From assembly GCF_963921235.1 (NCBI RefSeq), contig NC_086097.1:9486001-9550000 (forward strand): a DNA stretch of 64,000 nt, given 5' to 3'. Origin of the DNA: Mobula hypostoma. Its lineage: Eukaryota. Below the pieces are notes generated by a model that saw only the letters and a list, made by a program, of their open reading frames with translations, did not search any database and was not told the DNA's origin. Below, piece by piece: positions 8,291 through 62,360 of the stretch. Each line of letters begins with the position of its first letter. Position 1 is the stretch's first letter. The translations under genes were made by a program, and so were the position numbers.

Positions 8291-8962
8291 AATAGTATCA
8301 CCTACACTTCTCCCTTCCTGGGATGATGATAGTAGATCAGGATCCAATGTGTTTATGAAAAATGCCTTGGAAAAGCTGGGCATCAGTACCTGGCACTTGT
8401 CTACCTGGATGAGTTCACCCAGAATAATACAGCCACTTTATCAAATGTACATAGCTTAAGCACTATGTATTGATCTGTTGTCTGTGCATGCACATTGTTT
8501 GCCCTCTCTCGCTGCAATGTGAATACACCAGATAAAGCCATCTCCCACATCCATGCTTTTATATAATTGATATGTAGCTGTGCACAGACACGACAAATTG
8601 GCGAAGAGTATAAATCTGAATGTCCGAGAATATCACGAATCGCACTGAAATTCTGGGATGAAACAGCAAGAGTTAGACAGTAAGCCAAAGGACACGTACA
8701 AAGGAATGCGTGAATAATAGTGAAAGACACGCTGAATTTAAAGTGAAAAAACTTTAAGTTGGCTTAAGTAGGGAAAGTTAACGAATTTTATAGTGTTATT
8801 GAGGGTCGGGAGTTGAATATTGAGAGGGTGGAACTGTATTGTAATGCGAACAACGAGGAGCAAAGAAAGCCACTATGTTTCTTAGCTTATGGGCTGAAGA
8901 ACGTGCAGTCTTTTACATGAATTAGTAACCTTTGAAAAGCCAGCAGGTAAGACATTTGACAA

Positions 8963-9187
8963 CACACATAAAAATTGCTGGTGAATGCAGCAGGCCAGGC
9001 AGCATCTATAGGAAGAGGTACAGTTGACGCTTCGGGCCGAGAGCCTTCGTCAGTCCTAACGAAGGGTCCCGGCCCGAACCGTCGACTGTAGCTCTTCCTA
9101 TAGATGCTGCCTGGCTGCTGCATTCACCAGCAATTTTTATGTGTGTTGCTTGATATTCCAGCATCTGCAGATTTCCCCGTGTTTGCG
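8963..9187. mobile_element. Penelope-derived fold-back mini-element inserted in Gypsy gag
   Basis: Imperfect palindrome centred on CTTCGTCAGTCCTAACGAAG plus the CCAGCATCTGCAG tail. Diverged TSD: AAGACATTTGACAA (8949-8962) and AAGACACTCGACAA (9188-9201). Confidence 0.85.
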
Positions 9188-27497: not shown

Positions 27498-27635
27498 GAG
27501 TCCTGCCAAAGAGTTTTGGCCGGAAGTGTCGACTATGCTTTTTTTTTTGGTGGATGCTGTCTGGCCTGCTGAGTTCCTCCAGCATTTTGTGTGTGTTGCT
27601 TGAATTTCCAGCATCTGCAGATTTTCTCTTATCTG
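27498..27635 (+). mobile_element. Degraded Penelope 3' terminus
   Basis: Decayed hammerhead region followed by GATGCTG..CCTGCTGAGTTCCTCCAGCATTTTGTGTGTGTTGC and the CCAGCATCTGCAG tail. Confidence 0.75.
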
Positions 27636-28589
27636 TGATTAAACATACTTGTTCTTTTAGGTAATTAATTATGAGTTAGATGTATAAATAAGTTAATTGC
27701 ATACGTTATCACACTATCACATGATACGTGTGTGCCTCACTTAAAGTAAACTTGAACAACACCAGTATCATTCTGGACTCCTGTGTTTCATTTGAATTAA
27801 TTTAATGTCTTGATGTTACAAAATTTAGCAGTTCTGGCACTCTGGTTCCCATCCCCCAATATTAAAAAAATCCTGTTCCCTCAGAGGGATAAACAATATT
27901 GCATAACTCTGTTTCTTTTGTCATAGTTGTCTTGTGCTTATAAATCAACAGCAGTACAACAAGATAAAATTCAATATCTAGTCAAAAAAATTGCTTAGCA
28001 AACAATGTATGTCTATTTTTACAGGAAATCGATGGCAAAAATTAGCACAAAATAAAGCGCGCTTGATGTAAAAGACTTTAAGATGAAAAAATGTCACTGC
28101 TGATATGCCAAACTATCTCCATTTGACATAAGCCTTGGCTTTCTGGGAGCACTTTAGATGAGCCAGAAGGTCATCAGTTCGAGTTCCAGTGAAGAGATTT
28201 ACAAAGATAATCTTTTATGACACTTCAGTACAGAACAGTTCTCTTTGAGAAAGGATGTTAACCCAGCACTGTGCCTGCTAGCTCAAGTGGATATTATAAA
28301 ATCTCATGGTGCTTTTCAAAGAACGATTAATGAACCTATCCTTCTTGTTAGATATTTGATTTTGTACCGTGGGATCAGTATTATAGTAATCCACTATTTA
28401 TAGCAATTTAACACACTTTACTCCTGTTGAATCTTTCACCATTTTGAAGAGGAATTCTAGTATGGTTCATGTCCATGGCTGTCAAAATTTTACCAGCTAT
28501 ATCTTTATTTTTGTTTATTTATTGAGATACAGCATGGATTAGGCCCTCCTGGCCTTTCAAGCCATGCCACCTAGCGTCCCTCAATTTAA

Positions 28590-28815
28590 GCAACACACAT
28601 CAAAGTTGCTGGTGAACGCAGCAGGCCAAGCAGCATCTATAGGAAGAGGCGCAGTCGACGTTTCAGGCCGAGACCCTTCGTTAGTCCTGACGAAGGGTCT
28701 CGGCCTGAAACGTCGACTGCGCCTCTTCCTATAGATGCTGCTTGGCCTGCTGCGTTCACCAGCAACTTTGATGTGTGTTGCTTGAATTTCCAGCATCTGC
28801 AGAATTCCTGTTGTT
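28590..28815. mobile_element. Penelope-derived 226-bp fold-back mini-element
   Basis: Perfect 94-bp inverted arms (28588-28681 and 28690-28783), 8-nt loop and an unpaired tail. 13-bp TSD TCCCTCAATTTAA at 28577-28589 and 28816-28828. Confidence 0.93.
28683..28718 (+). ncRNA. Minimal type-I hammerhead ribozyme motif
   Basis: AGUC-CUGACGA-A-GGGU(CUCG)GCCU-GAAA-CG-UC-GACU; predicted cleavage after C28714. Confidence 0.8.
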
Positions 28816-29374
28816 TCCCTCAATTTAATCCTAGCAATTAACAATGACCAATTAACTGACCAACCGGTACTTCTTTGGAATGTGGGAGAAAACCAGGGCA
28901 CCTGGAGGAAACCCATACAGTCACAGGGAGAACACACAAGCTCTTTCCAAGTGGCGATGGGAATTGAACCGGGGTTGCTTGTACTGTAAAGCGTTGTACT
29001 AACCACTAAGCTGTCATGCCACTAGAAAATCTAGTATAAGAAGTCCTGAGGAAGGGCCTCGGCCCAAAGTCTCAACTGTTTATTCCTTTCCATAGATGCC
29101 GCCTGACCTGCTGAGTACCTCCAGCATTTTATGTGCGTGTTCCAGCATGTGTAGAATCTGTTTTGTTTATGTGGCTCTTTATGCCTGATTAAAGTAAAGC
29201 TTGTGAATTGCTTCTGTCCTACGTGGAGAGAATATGAATGGTTAATCCAGTCAACGGTGGAAGATGAGAACTTACAGACGTAGAAATCTGAAGTGAGGAA
29301 ACAAATGAAAATGATTCGATTCACATTGTCTCTCAAGTCCACCAACTGCTCTCTAAGTTTGTGCATAAAGTTAA

Positions 29375-53659: not shown

Positions 53660-54230
53660 AAGTGAAACAATAGCCAACGCTTCAGGCTGAGACACTTCAC
53701 ATGGTCTCAGCACAAAACTTCAGCTGTTTATTCATTTCCACCGATACTGCCTGACCTGCTGAGTTCCTCCAGAATTTTGTATGTGTTACTCTAGATTTCC
53801 AGCATTTCAGAGATGAAACAAGCTCTCACAACAGTGAAAAGATGAGAATGGAAAGGAAAGGTCTGACTTAGACTGGAGGACAGGATTGATTAAATGACAA
53901 AACAGATAATGTTGCTCGTGCTAATCTCTCTGTCCTTATCCTCCTACACTAGTTCAATCAATTTTGAATTAAGCTTGAAAAATAGTACTTCCAACTTTGG
54001 CTGTAACATTTCAAACTGCTGCTTTCAAAACTGAATTTACCAATTTTAGACACAAGAAGTTTTGTAGATGATAGAAATCCGGAGTAGCACACGTGAAAAG
54101 CTGGAGGAACGCAGCAAGTGAAGCTGCATCTATGGAAAGGAATGAACAGGCGACTATTCAGGCCGAGACCCTTTGTCAGGCTAGTCCAGACGAAGGATCT
54201 CAGCCCAAAATGTCCATTGTTTATTCCTTA
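53660..54230. mobile_element. Two degraded Penelope fold-back mini-elements (about 53660-53810 and 54050-54230)
   Basis: Decayed GGCTGAGAC..GGTCTCAGC palindromes and CCTGACCTGCTGAGTTCCTCCAG; also CCCTTTGTCAGGCTAGTCCAGACGAAGGATCTCAGCCC. Confidence 0.65.
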
Positions 54231-56210: not shown

Positions 56211-56776
56211 CCGTTTGGCAATCAGTTACTTTTACACATTGATTTCTAATTTTGAATTCTCCCACAAGAGGGAATATACTTTATCATCTACCTTTTAAAC
56301 CCTTCAGAATCTTAAATGTGCTAATCAAGTTTCCATATACTCTTCCAAACTTCCAGCAGGTATCAGCATCATTTGTCCAACTTTTGCTAAAAGAACAATA
56401 CAGATATTAAGTCTATTAAGCCTTCCTTGAACTGCTTCTAACAGAGTTACATCCTTTCTTAAATAGGGAGATTAATAGTACGTACAGCATTCCAGATGTG
56501 CCTTCATCGGTGCCATTATCCTTTGTGTTTAATATATGAATGAAAATATTCTGTTGGCTTCCCTAAATATTTGCACTACTTGCGTACCAATCTTTTGCAA
56601 ATTGTGCAGAGAACATTTGGATCTTTCTACTTTTCAGAATTCTTCACTCAATCAATATTTATGTATGCTTGTTTTTCTAAAATAACATTTCTGCCCAAAA
56701 TGGACACATTCACGCAACACACATCAAAGTTGCTGGTGAATGCAGCAGGCCAGGCAGCATCTATAGGAAGAGGTGC

Positions 56777-56812
56777 AGTCGACGTTTCAGGCCGAGACCC
56801 TTCGTCAGGACT
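56777..56812 (-). ncRNA. Minimal hammerhead ribozyme motif
   Basis: Minus strand AGUC-CUGACGA-A-GGGU(CUCG)GCCU-GAAA-CG-UC-GACU. Confidence 0.8.
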
Positions 56813-57107
56813 AACTGAAGGAAGAGTGAGTAAGGGATTTGAAAGCTGGAGGGGGAGGGGGAGATGCAAAATGATAGGAGAAGACAGGAGGGGGAGGGAT
56901 AGAGCCGAGAGCTGGACAGGTGATAGGCAAAAGGGGATACGAGAGGATCATGGGACAGGAGGTCCGGGAAGAAAGACGGGGGGGGGGGGTGACCCAGAGG
57001 ATGGGCAAGAGGTATATTCAGAGGGACAGAGGGAGAAAAAGGAGAGTGAGAGAAAGAATGTGTGCATAAAAATGAGTAACAGATGGGGTACGAGGGGGAG
57101 GTGGGGC

Positions 57108-57530
57108 CTAGCGGAAGTTAGAGAAGTCAATGTTCATGCCATCAGGTTGGAGGCTACCCAGACAGAATATAAGGTGTTGTTCCTCCAACCTGAGTGTGGC
57201 TTCATCTTTACAGTAGAGGAGGCCGTGGATAGACATGTCAGAATGGGAATGGGATGTGGAATTAAAATGTGTGGCCACTGGGTGATCCTGCTTTCTCTGG
57301 CGGACAGAGCGTAGATGTTCAGCAAAGCGGTCTCCCAGTCTGCATCGGGTCTCACCAATATATAAAAGGCCACATCGGGAGCACCGGACGCAGTATATCA
57401 CCCCAGTCGACTCACAGGTGAAGTGATGCCTCACCTGGAAGGACTGTTTGGGGCCCTGAATGGTGGTGAGGGAGGAAGTGTAAGGGCATGTGTAGCACTT
57501 GTTCCGCTTACACGGATAAGTGCCAGGAGG
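57108..57530 (-). pseudogene. Penelope GIY-YIG endonuclease domain with upstream Cys-rich linker (5'-truncated; RT absent)
   Basis: PGTYPCKRNKCYTCP...FTCESTGVIYCVRCSRCGLLYIGETRCRLGDRFAEH..HFNSTSH..LEEQHLI..LQPDGMN. Confidence 0.9.
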
Positions 57531-58023
57531 GAGATCAGTGGGGAGGGATGGGGGGGACGAATGGACAAGGGAGTTGTGTAGAGAGCGATCCAGGCGGAAT
57601 GCAGAGAAAGGCCTCCTCTACTGTAAAGATGAAGGCACACTCAGGTTGGAGGAACAACACCTTATATTCCGTCTGGGTAGCCTCCAACCTGATGGCATGA
57701 ACATTGACTTCTCTAACTTCCGCTAGGCCCCACCTCCCCCTCGTACCCCATCTGTTACTCATTTTTATGCACACATTCTTTCTCTCACTCTCCTTTTTCT
57801 CCCTCTGTCCCTCTGAATATACCTCTTGCCCATCCTCTGGGTCAACCCCCCCCACCTTGTCTTTCTCCCTAGGCCTCCTGTCCCATGATCCTCTCGTATC
57901 CCCTTTTGCCTATCACCTGTCCAGCTCTCGGCTCTATCCCTCCCCCTCCTGTCTTCTCCTATCATTTTGCATCTCCCCCTCCCCCTCCAGCTTTCAAATC
58001 CCTTACTCACTCTTCCTTCAGTT

Positions 58024-58059
58024 AGTCCTGACGAAGGGTCTCGGCCTGAAACGTCGACT
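58024..58059 (+). ncRNA. Minimal hammerhead ribozyme motif
   Basis: Identical to 28683-28718. Confidence 0.8.
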
Positions 58060-58719
58060 GCACCTCTTCCTATAGATGCTGCCTGGCCTGCTGCGTTCAC
58101 CAGCAACTTTGATGTGTGTTGCTTGAATTTCCAGCATCTGCAGAATTCCTGTTGTTTATGGACACATTCACATTAGCTGGATATATGTCCACTCTCTTAC
58201 CTATCAATATCCCCATGTGCTATTCTTATGTCACCTTCACAACTGAAGTCCATGACTATCATGACATCATCATTTTATTTGGCAATCATGACTTTGGTGT
58301 CTTCAGTCAAGTCATTTAAATAATCTGTAAAAAGTCAAAGGCCCAGAATCAATCCTTAGTATACAACTTGCTGCATCTTGCCAACCTGAATAGAAATATG
58401 TCTACTTGGTTAGCCAGCCAATCTTCTGCCCAAATCAGTATGTCAACCTCCTACAAAGGGACAGTAGTATGGAAATATTTGGGGGCTATTTACATATTGA
58501 TACGATTAAGGCATTGTAGAATTGTAAAGATATAATCACAAGAACAGGCCCTTCACCTCAGTGGTGCATGCTAACCAAGGTGCTCATTCAGGATGATCCC
58601 ATTTGGCTGCTTTTGGCCCATATTCTTCCAGATCATTCTTATTCATATACTGATCTAAATGTCTTTAAAAGTTATTATTGTACCTCCTTTAATTTCATCC
58701 TCTGGTACCTCATTTGCTC

Positions 58720-62186: not shown

Positions 62187-62360
62187 CCAAGCAACACACA
62201 CAAAATACTGGAGGAACTCAGCAGGCAAGGCATCATCTGTGGAAAAGATGCAACCAACGTTTGGGCCGAGACCCTTCAGTGGGACTGTCCTGGCCTGCTA
62301 CGTTCCTCCAGCATTTTGTGTGCGTTGCTTGAATTTCCAGCATCTGCAGATTTTGTCTTG
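62187..62360. mobile_element. Degraded Penelope fold-back mini-element (another terminus at 61747-61812)
   Basis: AAGCAACACACACAAAATACTGGAGGAAC...GTTCCTCCAGCATTTTGTGTGCGTTGCTT, followed by the GAATTTCCAGCATCTGCAG tail. Confidence 0.75.

Follow-up and report, generated by a model that had tools for sequence, protein, structure and literature searches.

Does a short, perfectly palindromic insert that recurs throughout a genome represent a mobile family in its own right, or is it merely what a larger element leaves behind? The question is raised by a fold-back of 226 bp at positions 28590-28815 of a 64,000-nucleotide stretch of Mobula hypostoma DNA (NCBI RefSeq assembly GCF_963921235.1, contig NC_086097.1, positions 9,486,001 to 9,550,000 of the forward strand), the whole of which is referred to below as the window. 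A sequence-only reading of the window had put forward both answers, namely a non-autonomous, ribozyme-bearing family resembling a miniature inverted-repeat transposable element (a "retro-MITE") mobilised in trans, or the recurrent minimal product of Penelope integration. The analysis described here argues for the second. The insert is very probably a dead-on-arrival, extremely 5'-truncated insertion of an endonuclease-positive (EN+) Penelope-like element (PLE), made de novo on site and not copied from another fold-back.

The anatomy first described for the insert was borne out, with one refinement concerning the arms. The insert proper lies within a dispersed repeat and is flanked by two copies of a 13-bp target-site duplication (TSD), TCCCTCAATTTAA, at 28577-28589 and 28816-28828 (13/13 identical). 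It consists of a tail-less inverted arm on the minus strand (28590-28681), an 8-nt loop, TAGTCCTG (28682-28689, plus strand), a sense arm (28690-28781, plus strand), and a 34-nt tail at one end only (28782-28815, plus strand). The perfectly complementary arms found by script measure 94 nt (28588-28681 and 28690-28783), of which the outermost 2 nt are TSD and tail bases that chance to pair, leaving arms of 92 nt that belong to the element itself. The loop is contiguous with the right arm, as in the parent element, and holds the helix I 5' strand and C3-G5 of a hammerhead core. No open reading frame (ORF) is present. The insert is very recent, as had been claimed, because its arms and TSD are perfect and because it is 99.6-100% identical to the copies at loci L002-L004.

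From what, then, was the insert built? Positions prefixed P refer to the 3' end of a longer PLE copy in the same window (56714-58157, plus strand), P1-300 being the sense sequence at 57858-58157. The right arm and tail correspond to P164-300, the sense arm alone to P174..P265, and the left arm to the reverse complement of P174-265. BLAST against the element 3' end at 57610-58157 aligned the right arm and tail with P158..300 at 97.9% identity, and the left arm with inverted P272..158. Judged by these alignments, the insert is made of the PLE 3' terminus only (the last ~137 nt), in agreement with the sequence-only reading. The longer copy, with TSD ATGGACACATTCAC, is indeed a PLE as that reading held, and is itself a 5'-truncated, asymmetric inverted pair with arms at 56708-57224 and 57610-58128 and a spacer of 385 nt; the antisense copy, which has no tail, exceeds the other by 385 nt and encodes GIY-YIG, and the tail is on the sense copy. 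The ORFs of PLE copies elsewhere in the genome match RVT_1 (E 2.4e-5, 24.6 bits vs a cut-off of 29.6) followed by a C-terminal GIY-YIG (E 1.9e-4, 22.1 bits vs a cut-off of 22.6).

Four 7.7-kb stretches examined for a complete unit held truncated or inverted copies only. Complete units are represented by loci L127 and L128, in which the next unit's leader and ORF follow on from the tail, so that the "tail" is the sequence next to the inner start site of reverse transcription; their upstream ends lie at about P-68 and P50, and P300 runs into the next unit. The family is abundant in the 3.48 Gb searched, where pattern counts need exact matches: there are 52,602 occurrences of a 24-mer from the hammerhead region and 44,664 of the parental junction in uninterrupted form. 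The family is very young and was recently active, since all 40 scored matches to an N-terminal ORF probe of 351 nt were 99-100% identical (among 1,733 candidates), and it is probably still active.

Does the recurrence of one structure betray an independent family? Under the retro-MITE proposal, master fold-backs would be transcribed, and the PLE protein would recognise their RNA in trans and copy the entire hairpin to new sites. The bare numbers favour such a family. An exact 24-nt pattern spanning the centre of the fold-back has 245 copies in the genome against 0 for the control, and a whole-element search with 775 candidates gave 40 scored matches, every one of which is 94-100% identical and spans 214 nt or more of the 226. 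The sense arm also retains the whole 3' module (hammerhead, stem-loop, and tail) which a PLE protein would need. Among 60 same-centre copies analysed, the flanks are all different and the TSD measures 13-15 bp in 42 and at least 12 bp in 50. Copies with the same centre are therefore independent insertions.

The centres themselves tell against a single master. A palindromic gap pattern returned 2,407 fold-back loci centred within ~15 nt upstream of P175. Fifty of these were listed, of which eight had the window centre and nine a centre at a GTC microhomology, with the remaining 33 distributed over 28 further centres, making 30 different centres altogether. The GTC junction, with 471 exact copies, is about twice as common as the window junction with its 245. 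The centres are thus non-random, and the 245-copy and 471-copy junctions are hot spots. According to the sequence-only reading, randomly varying centres in copies that cluster with full-length Penelope would speak against an independent family; the centres do vary and the haplotypes are those of the PLE, but the variation is punctuated by hot spots and is not random.

Haplotypes bear more directly on descent. The copies compared comprised 40 taken in genome order from the exact 24-mer list, a choice that favours young copies through its exact match, together with the first 30 loci, which were the best matches to the window copy and were left out of the isomer ratio given below as biased. The ordinary PLE 3' modules set beside them (29 modules at 20 loci) were chosen by position only, from the first 1.4 Mb of one contig. 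The 60 same-centre copies do not cluster: they fall into at least ten haplotypes at six polymorphic sites, and the same haplotypes (TAGCGG, CGTTGG, CGTCGA, CACTGG, CACCGG, CAGCTG, TATCGG, and others) are found among the ordinary modules. At the subfamily sites P190, P204, P205, P216, P226, and P254, the variant is common to both arms 99 times and differs 11 times, an outcome that faithful copying of a two-armed RNA would not give. At all other sites in the 60 copies, a variant is confined to a single arm in 84 cases, 49 of these at CpG, and shared by the two arms in six. The arms must therefore have come from one template at insertion and diverged independently afterwards, and the variant pattern gives no sign of an inherited two-armed master or of arm-to-arm conversion, by which the sequence-only reading had alternatively explained the identity of the arms.

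The position of the tail leads to the same conclusion. Among the 40 genome-order copies, the tail stands on the loop-contiguous arm in 16 and on the other arm in 15, with eight copies having a complex centre and one being degenerate. Both tail isomers are present within single haplotypes, which again does not suit a master copied whole. In the best-match set, 29 of the 30 loci could be typed and all are of the window's isomer. All 60 simple fold-back copies carry exactly one tail. In 54 of 60 copies, the tail-less arm starts at P253-273, in or around the stem-loop GCAAC...GTTGC (P246-265), instead of showing the variable transcript or truncation ends to be expected of a copied hairpin. In the window insert this stem-loop, GCAACTTTGATGTGTGTTGC, occupies 28762-28781 (plus strand), and the sequence and arm boundaries place the start of tail-less arms at its position. 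Tail-bearing arms begin at P293-300, at times up to about 9 nt further out. A ragged outer start of this kind, with the longer tail ending in …TTGTTTGCGTTTAAA, was seen in L009, L010, L012, L019, L027, L028, L075, and L087. Four tail-less arms begin instead at P215-219 (L049, L073, L080, and L088), which is possibly a minor third start site or the result of deletions.

With haplotypes shared with ordinary PLE 3' ends, two isomers at 16:15, and many other centres, an independent retro-MITE family is improbable, and the alternative offered beside it, a recurrent minimal product of Penelope integration, fits both the varied centres and the many subfamily haplotypes among identical-centre copies. 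The marks of an EN+ PLE insertion were all found, namely a source that encodes reverse transcriptase followed by GIY-YIG, an inverted 5'-truncated copy adjoining a direct copy, a tail at one end, and a TSD. The stretch 28590-28815 is a truncated EN+ PLE insertion unit.

How might such a unit arise? The proposed course starts from an in vitro precedent. As described by Frangieh et al. (2024; PMC11167929), the purified PLE protein of Anolis (PAc, Poseidon of Anolis carolinensis) cleaves and extends both target strands. Reverse transcription has two adjacent internal starts, located in or close to a stem-loop that follows the hammerhead at a distance of ~70-90 nt, the stretch between the starts becoming the tail. 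The stem-loop at 28762-28781 is, by analogy with that account, the likely equivalent of the one at which PAc reverse transcription starts. The PLE endonuclease would cut both target strands, and each 3'-OH would prime reverse transcription on the same PLE RNA. One cDNA would start at the internal site in the GCAAC...GTTGC stem-loop (start site 1), and hence carry no tail, while the other would start ~35 nt further 3' and so carry it. Both would halt about 100-136 nt on, preferentially at P164-174, where the minimal hammerhead has its 5' edge. The cDNA 3' ends (P164 and P174) would then anneal through the 2 nt of GT/AC microhomology on either side of the 8-nt loop, with each then extended on the other to yield two arms identical at birth. 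The use of one shared RNA would explain why the arms share a haplotype and why there is a single tail. As a further conjecture, two cDNAs both ending at P164 and paired in trans would leave an 8-nt mismatched bubble, the random resolution of which would give the isomers at 1:1.

A simpler route to a palindrome should also be given fair weight. A single cDNA might snap back at the parent hairpin (CCUUC-A-GU...AC-GAAGG) and copy its own second arm, the fold-back again arising as a side product when a PLE integrates. In favour of this, the short fold-backs have small loops and are near-symmetric, the parent has a natural 7-bp interrupted hairpin exactly at the position of the centre, and snap-back would equally make the arms identical at birth. 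Recurrent multi-step centres such as those of L041-L043 moreover look like repeated template switches. Under snap-back, however, the loop-contiguous arm would always be the one with the tail, but among 31 simple copies 15 bear it on the other arm. At the commonest junction, the loop is of 2 nt and closed by GTC/GAC, too small for an intramolecular hairpin, and the junction that uses the parent's full natural hairpin, the CCTTC/GAAGG inverted repeat, is rarer at 57 exact copies. Asymmetric inverted pairs also exist, with an offset of 385 nt in 56714-58157 and of ~1.2 kb in L123, as does an inverted tail-only piece of 29 nt in L124. Snap-back is accordingly regarded as a doubtful, though conceivable, origin.

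Several observations made along the way touch on these junctions. The parent's own inverted repeat had been considered as the primer of the commonest junction and was rejected, its 57 copies standing against 245 and 471. Loci L041, L042, and L043 (also L078 and L086) share a recurrent complex centre with an extra GAAGG or GGACTAACGAAGG between the arms, which looks as if a double template switch had taken place around the natural hairpin. In L124:4228-7480, the unit is covered once by two inverted pieces: the minus strand holds the 29-nt tail joined to the reverse transcriptase part of the ORF, and the plus strand holds the C-terminal GIY-YIG part and the 3' untranslated region, ending without a tail, in the manner of a twin-priming product.

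A number of points weigh against the integration of two cDNAs as set out above. The two cDNAs and their one shared RNA are deduced from end-products alone. The 2-nt microhomology by itself fails to explain the 245-fold recurrence of one junction. The samples are small and not fully unbiased, given the 24-mer bias, the one-contig parental sample, and the best-match loci. Neighbouring pattern windows held 702 and 1,300 fold-back loci, and the comparison of 702, 2,407, and 1,300 is a rough one, the anchors differing in length and CpG content. The Pfam scores for the reverse transcriptase and GIY-YIG domains both lie just below their curated cut-offs. Eight of the 40 genome-order copies, those with complex centres, and the 11 discordant subfamily-site calls lack a detailed explanation, and an occasional fold-back, transcribed by read-through, may have served again as a template.

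Is the preferred end near P164 a property of fold-backs alone? The matter was examined by eye, comparing 100 listed places of the hammerhead 24-mer with the listed parental junctions. Thirty-seven of the 100 lacked an exact parental junction; eight of these lay in known fold-backs, and 20 of the other 29 were fetched. Eleven proved to be parental junctions of other subfamilies, four were tail-less, simple truncations that span P163-166 to P264-267, and two were asymmetric inverted junctions with the sense copy starting at P162-164. Ends at P162-166 thus occur outside the fold-backs, and a preferred cDNA end therefore exists whatever its joining partner. It coincides with the 5' edge of hammerhead helix I and with the natural helix CCUUC-A-GU...AC-GAAGG.

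What lies directly before the hammerhead is CTTACTCACTCTTCCTTCAG (58002-58021, P145-164), in which we take there to be a resemblance to a branch point, a polypyrimidine tract, and an AG acceptor. The preferred 5' end of truncated copies falls directly behind CTTACTCACTCTTCCTTCAG. In the Penelope of D. virilis, an intron is reported to end at the helix I 5' end, according to Cervera and de la Pena (2014; PMC4209133). P164 is not the sole RNA 5' end of the present family, because L127 and L128 reach further upstream. Hammerhead self-cleavage was likewise considered as the event that sets the fold-back centre and was rejected, the predicted cut at P198|199 lying ~30 nt from the centre at P164-174.

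A bolder synthesis would join a stop at the hammerhead edge, priming by a dimeric ribonucleoprotein (RNP), pairing in trans, and the fold-backs as a record of integration into a single scheme. In this scheme, the telomerase-related reverse transcriptase of the PLE would meet an inherent stop or template boundary at P164-166, and the two protomers of a dimeric RNP would each prime at a different start site of a single RNA, giving exactly one tail. Synthesis would frequently abort at the boundary, and the identical cDNA ends would pair in trans with an 8-nt bubble to yield "flip/flop" isomers (16:15). If it were true, the thousands of minimal fold-backs would constitute an in vivo record of PLE integration and perhaps a source of hairpin RNA feeding the silencing of the PLE family. 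The synthesis is ventured tentatively, and rather unlikely to hold as a whole.

What role is left for the ribozyme? The sequence-only reading had placed a hammerhead core at the apex of the hairpin, and a motif is indeed present there, at 28682-28719 (plus strand, P166-203), with the letters CUGACGA-A-GGGUCUCGGCCU-GAAA-CGUC|GACUG, its 5' part making the hairpin loop. In PMC4209133, the core of a minimal PLE hammerhead ribozyme (min-HHR) is given as CUGANGA ... GAAA ..., with H17 after A15.1-U16.1, and its traits as an extra nucleotide after A9, a palindromic 15.2-16.2, and no helix III. Fitted manually to these features, the motif appears to be of the minimal PLE type: the conserved core CUGACGA / GAAA / ACGUC can be read at 28687-28714, in keeping with the min-HHR core, and by eye there is an extra A after A9, CG at 15.2-16.2, a helix I of 5 bp (UAGUC/GACUG), and no helix III. 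The partner of G10.1, whose pairing is also among the listed features, is U in the window copy; older subfamilies (GGCCC variants) have C instead. Cleavage is predicted after GUC, between 28714 and 28715 (P198|199). Across 38 distinct copies (87-98% identity) the motif is conserved apart from scattered decay, and these copies are too similar for a covariation test. No Rfam family of any kind was matched at gathering score in the whole window, and no hammerhead model at E<=10 in 28500-29150 or in the parent at 57990-58090, where one chance sRNA match was returned. The absence of helix III may be the reason for the miss. The ribozyme is hence a putative one, called at the level of the motif.

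A hammerhead in a small non-coding insert invites comparison with retrozymes, in which the RNA would be excised by hammerhead self-cleavage and circularised. The motif is there, and 226 nt falls within the 170-400 nt range of metazoan retrozymes given by Cervera and de la Pena (2020; PMC7229834). The insert, however, has one intact motif only; its other arm is antisense, supplying the opposite strand from core A6 onwards without helix I and C3-G5, and the motif is not repeated directly or in tandem. In the hairpin fold, the motif would be locked within the 94-bp duplex. PLE min-HHRs are moreover said in PMC4209133 to cleave poorly and only as dimers. A retrozyme-like origin is considered very improbable.

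The hairpin itself is exceptional in its predicted stability, with an RNA fold of -213.6 kcal/mol against -70.6 +/- 4.5 for 200 shuffles (z = -32), and the insert, if transcribed, would form a hairpin of 94 bp. Rfam at E<=10 on 28500-29150 returned only sub-threshold matches to miRNA hairpins (mir-3926, mir-2131, and mir-423) and none to a hammerhead, the hairpin at 28626-28745 being scored by miRNA models at E of about 1e-6 to 1e-9, under their gathering scores. These below-gathering scores are those of hairpin look-alikes. Fold-back copies such as 28590-28815 could nevertheless be mis-annotated as miRNA precursors.

Could the palindrome have been created by the assembler? Perfect palindromes are a known failure mode of assemblers, and no contig in four public runs bridges the element, although the latter is uninformative since short-read contigs break in this repeat. 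The host repeat supplies the better evidence. It is dispersed, approximately delimited to 28500-29030 on the minus strand, broken by the insert, and resembles a short interspersed nuclear element (SINE). Its left flank gave 831 first-look candidates, and 40 of 40 scored matches were positive, the other 39 at 82-92% identity. In three of ten paralogs (L097, L099, and L100), the left-flank and right-flank alignments overlap by exactly the 13-nt target. These three therefore represent the uninterrupted site with a single copy of the target. In five others (L093, L094, L096, L098, and L101), the right-flank alignment begins only at query 20-21 and has no bearing on the number of target copies, and in two (L092 and L095) there is no right-flank match. 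The perfect 13-bp TSD, the uninterrupted site in paralogs of the repeat, the recurrence of the structure at 245 loci with different TSDs, and the existence of older, mutated copies of the same design leave a false palindrome with a next to negligible probability. No public run recorded as RNA was found to contain the stretch. In the public runs, contig depth is high from 28489 on, and one contig of 185 nt (run X9) has a match ending exactly at 28589 with 14 unmatched letters beyond.

The sequence-only reading had called the host a SINE. Its dispersed nature and uninterrupted paralogs stand, and the SINE nature is read by eye only, from an A/B-box-like head on the minus strand near 28960-29030 that would suit a tRNA-derived SINE; ARAGORN found no tRNA in 28300-29200. 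Adjoining this SINE-like head, at 29042-29165, is an older 3' module of a different PLE subfamily (AGTCCTGAGGAAGGGCC...), which starts exactly at the hammerhead 5' edge. Other old copies in the window, at 27499, 31518, 40617, 48214, and 30463, align from P167 only.

Three older versions of the design had also been proposed within the window, and these fared unequally. The first of them, at 8960-9184 (plus strand), is a minimal fold-back of the same design at 87-90% identity, an inverted pair with one tail, a 12-nt TSD with two mismatches, and the centre in the same place with an altered loop. That loop, TCAGTCCTAA at 9040-9065, resembles a mix of both loop orientations (TTAGTCCTGA / TCAGGACTAA), and could have come from patchy repair of a mismatched bubble or from plain mutation. 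The second, at 62188-62353 (plus strand), is an old fold-back copy that is internally deleted. The third, at 53698-54175, is weak: its inverted repeat reaches just 70%, and a single arm matches, at 74%.

Taken alone, the insert is of little weight, being one more dead copy of an abundant and recently active PLE family, and for annotation it should be masked as PLE, without being entered as a novel MITE or a hairpin gene. Collectively, the copies are natural in vivo end-products that fit the both-strand priming and two internal starts of the Anolis PLE in vitro. Four regularities emerge from them: one tail per insertion, a tail-bearing arm that is either of the two at ~1:1, arms that share one RNA haplotype, and a sharp cDNA end at the hammerhead edge. 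The PLE integration cycle is still poorly understood, and these regularities could test and sharpen models of it. A search of the literature on Penelope foldback or PLE twin priming returned no account of the one-tail, two-isomer rule; the search did not extend to older PLE papers (Evgen'ev and Arkhipova 2005; Pyatkov et al. 2004; Lunse et al. 2017).

How does the insert compare with systems already known? With MITEs and foldback DNA transposons it has in common its shortness, the lack of coding capacity, terminal inverted repeats (TIRs), and a TSD. Those elements are moved by a DNA transposase that recognises the TIRs. The arms here, in contrast, are reverse-transcribed PLE, an unpaired tail stands at one end, and the copies are not descended from each other. 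The twin priming of L1, a model reportedly due to Ostertag and Kazazian in 2001, is said to involve a second cDNA primed from the other target strand on the same RNA and joined by microhomology, leaving an inverted 5' segment; its second priming is said to occur at a random internal site, so that the segments do not overlap. In the PLE fold-back, by contrast, both primings would take place at dedicated start sites in the 3' end and the same stretch would be copied twice, and it is because both copy the same 3' stretch that a fold-back, unlike in L1, would result.

Metazoan retrozymes are likewise small, non-coding, hammerhead-bearing, retro-derived, and abundant, but as described in PMC7229834 they consist of tandem or direct repeats with a ribozyme per unit, form circular RNAs, and propagate as families. 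Examined for two repeats, the insert has one motif and inverted arms, with no sign of propagation at the level of a family. The Anolis element is nearer. The two-site, both-strand priming of PAc predicts inverted cDNA pairs with start points like those of the window family. In PAc, the hammerhead overlaps the start of the ORF; in the present family, the stop codon of the preceding unit comes first and the hammerhead follows ~285 nt later. The one-tail rule and the hammerhead-edge stop are genomic observations made here that were not met in the text of PMC11167929 available.

The closest match is with the EN+ PLE units of Penelope, Poseidon, and Neptune. As set out by Craig et al. (2021; PMC8557442), a typical PLE insertion comprises an inverted 5'-truncated copy together with a tail of 30-40 bp at one end. 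Heavy 5' truncation, the inverted copy, the one tail, the hammerhead, the TSD, and a source encoding reverse transcriptase and GIY-YIG are all held in common with such units. The window insert is no different from them in kind and stands at their extreme short end, with both copies reduced to ~92-100 nt, a hairpin and tail being all that remains, and joined at one of two hot-spot junctions of this genome.

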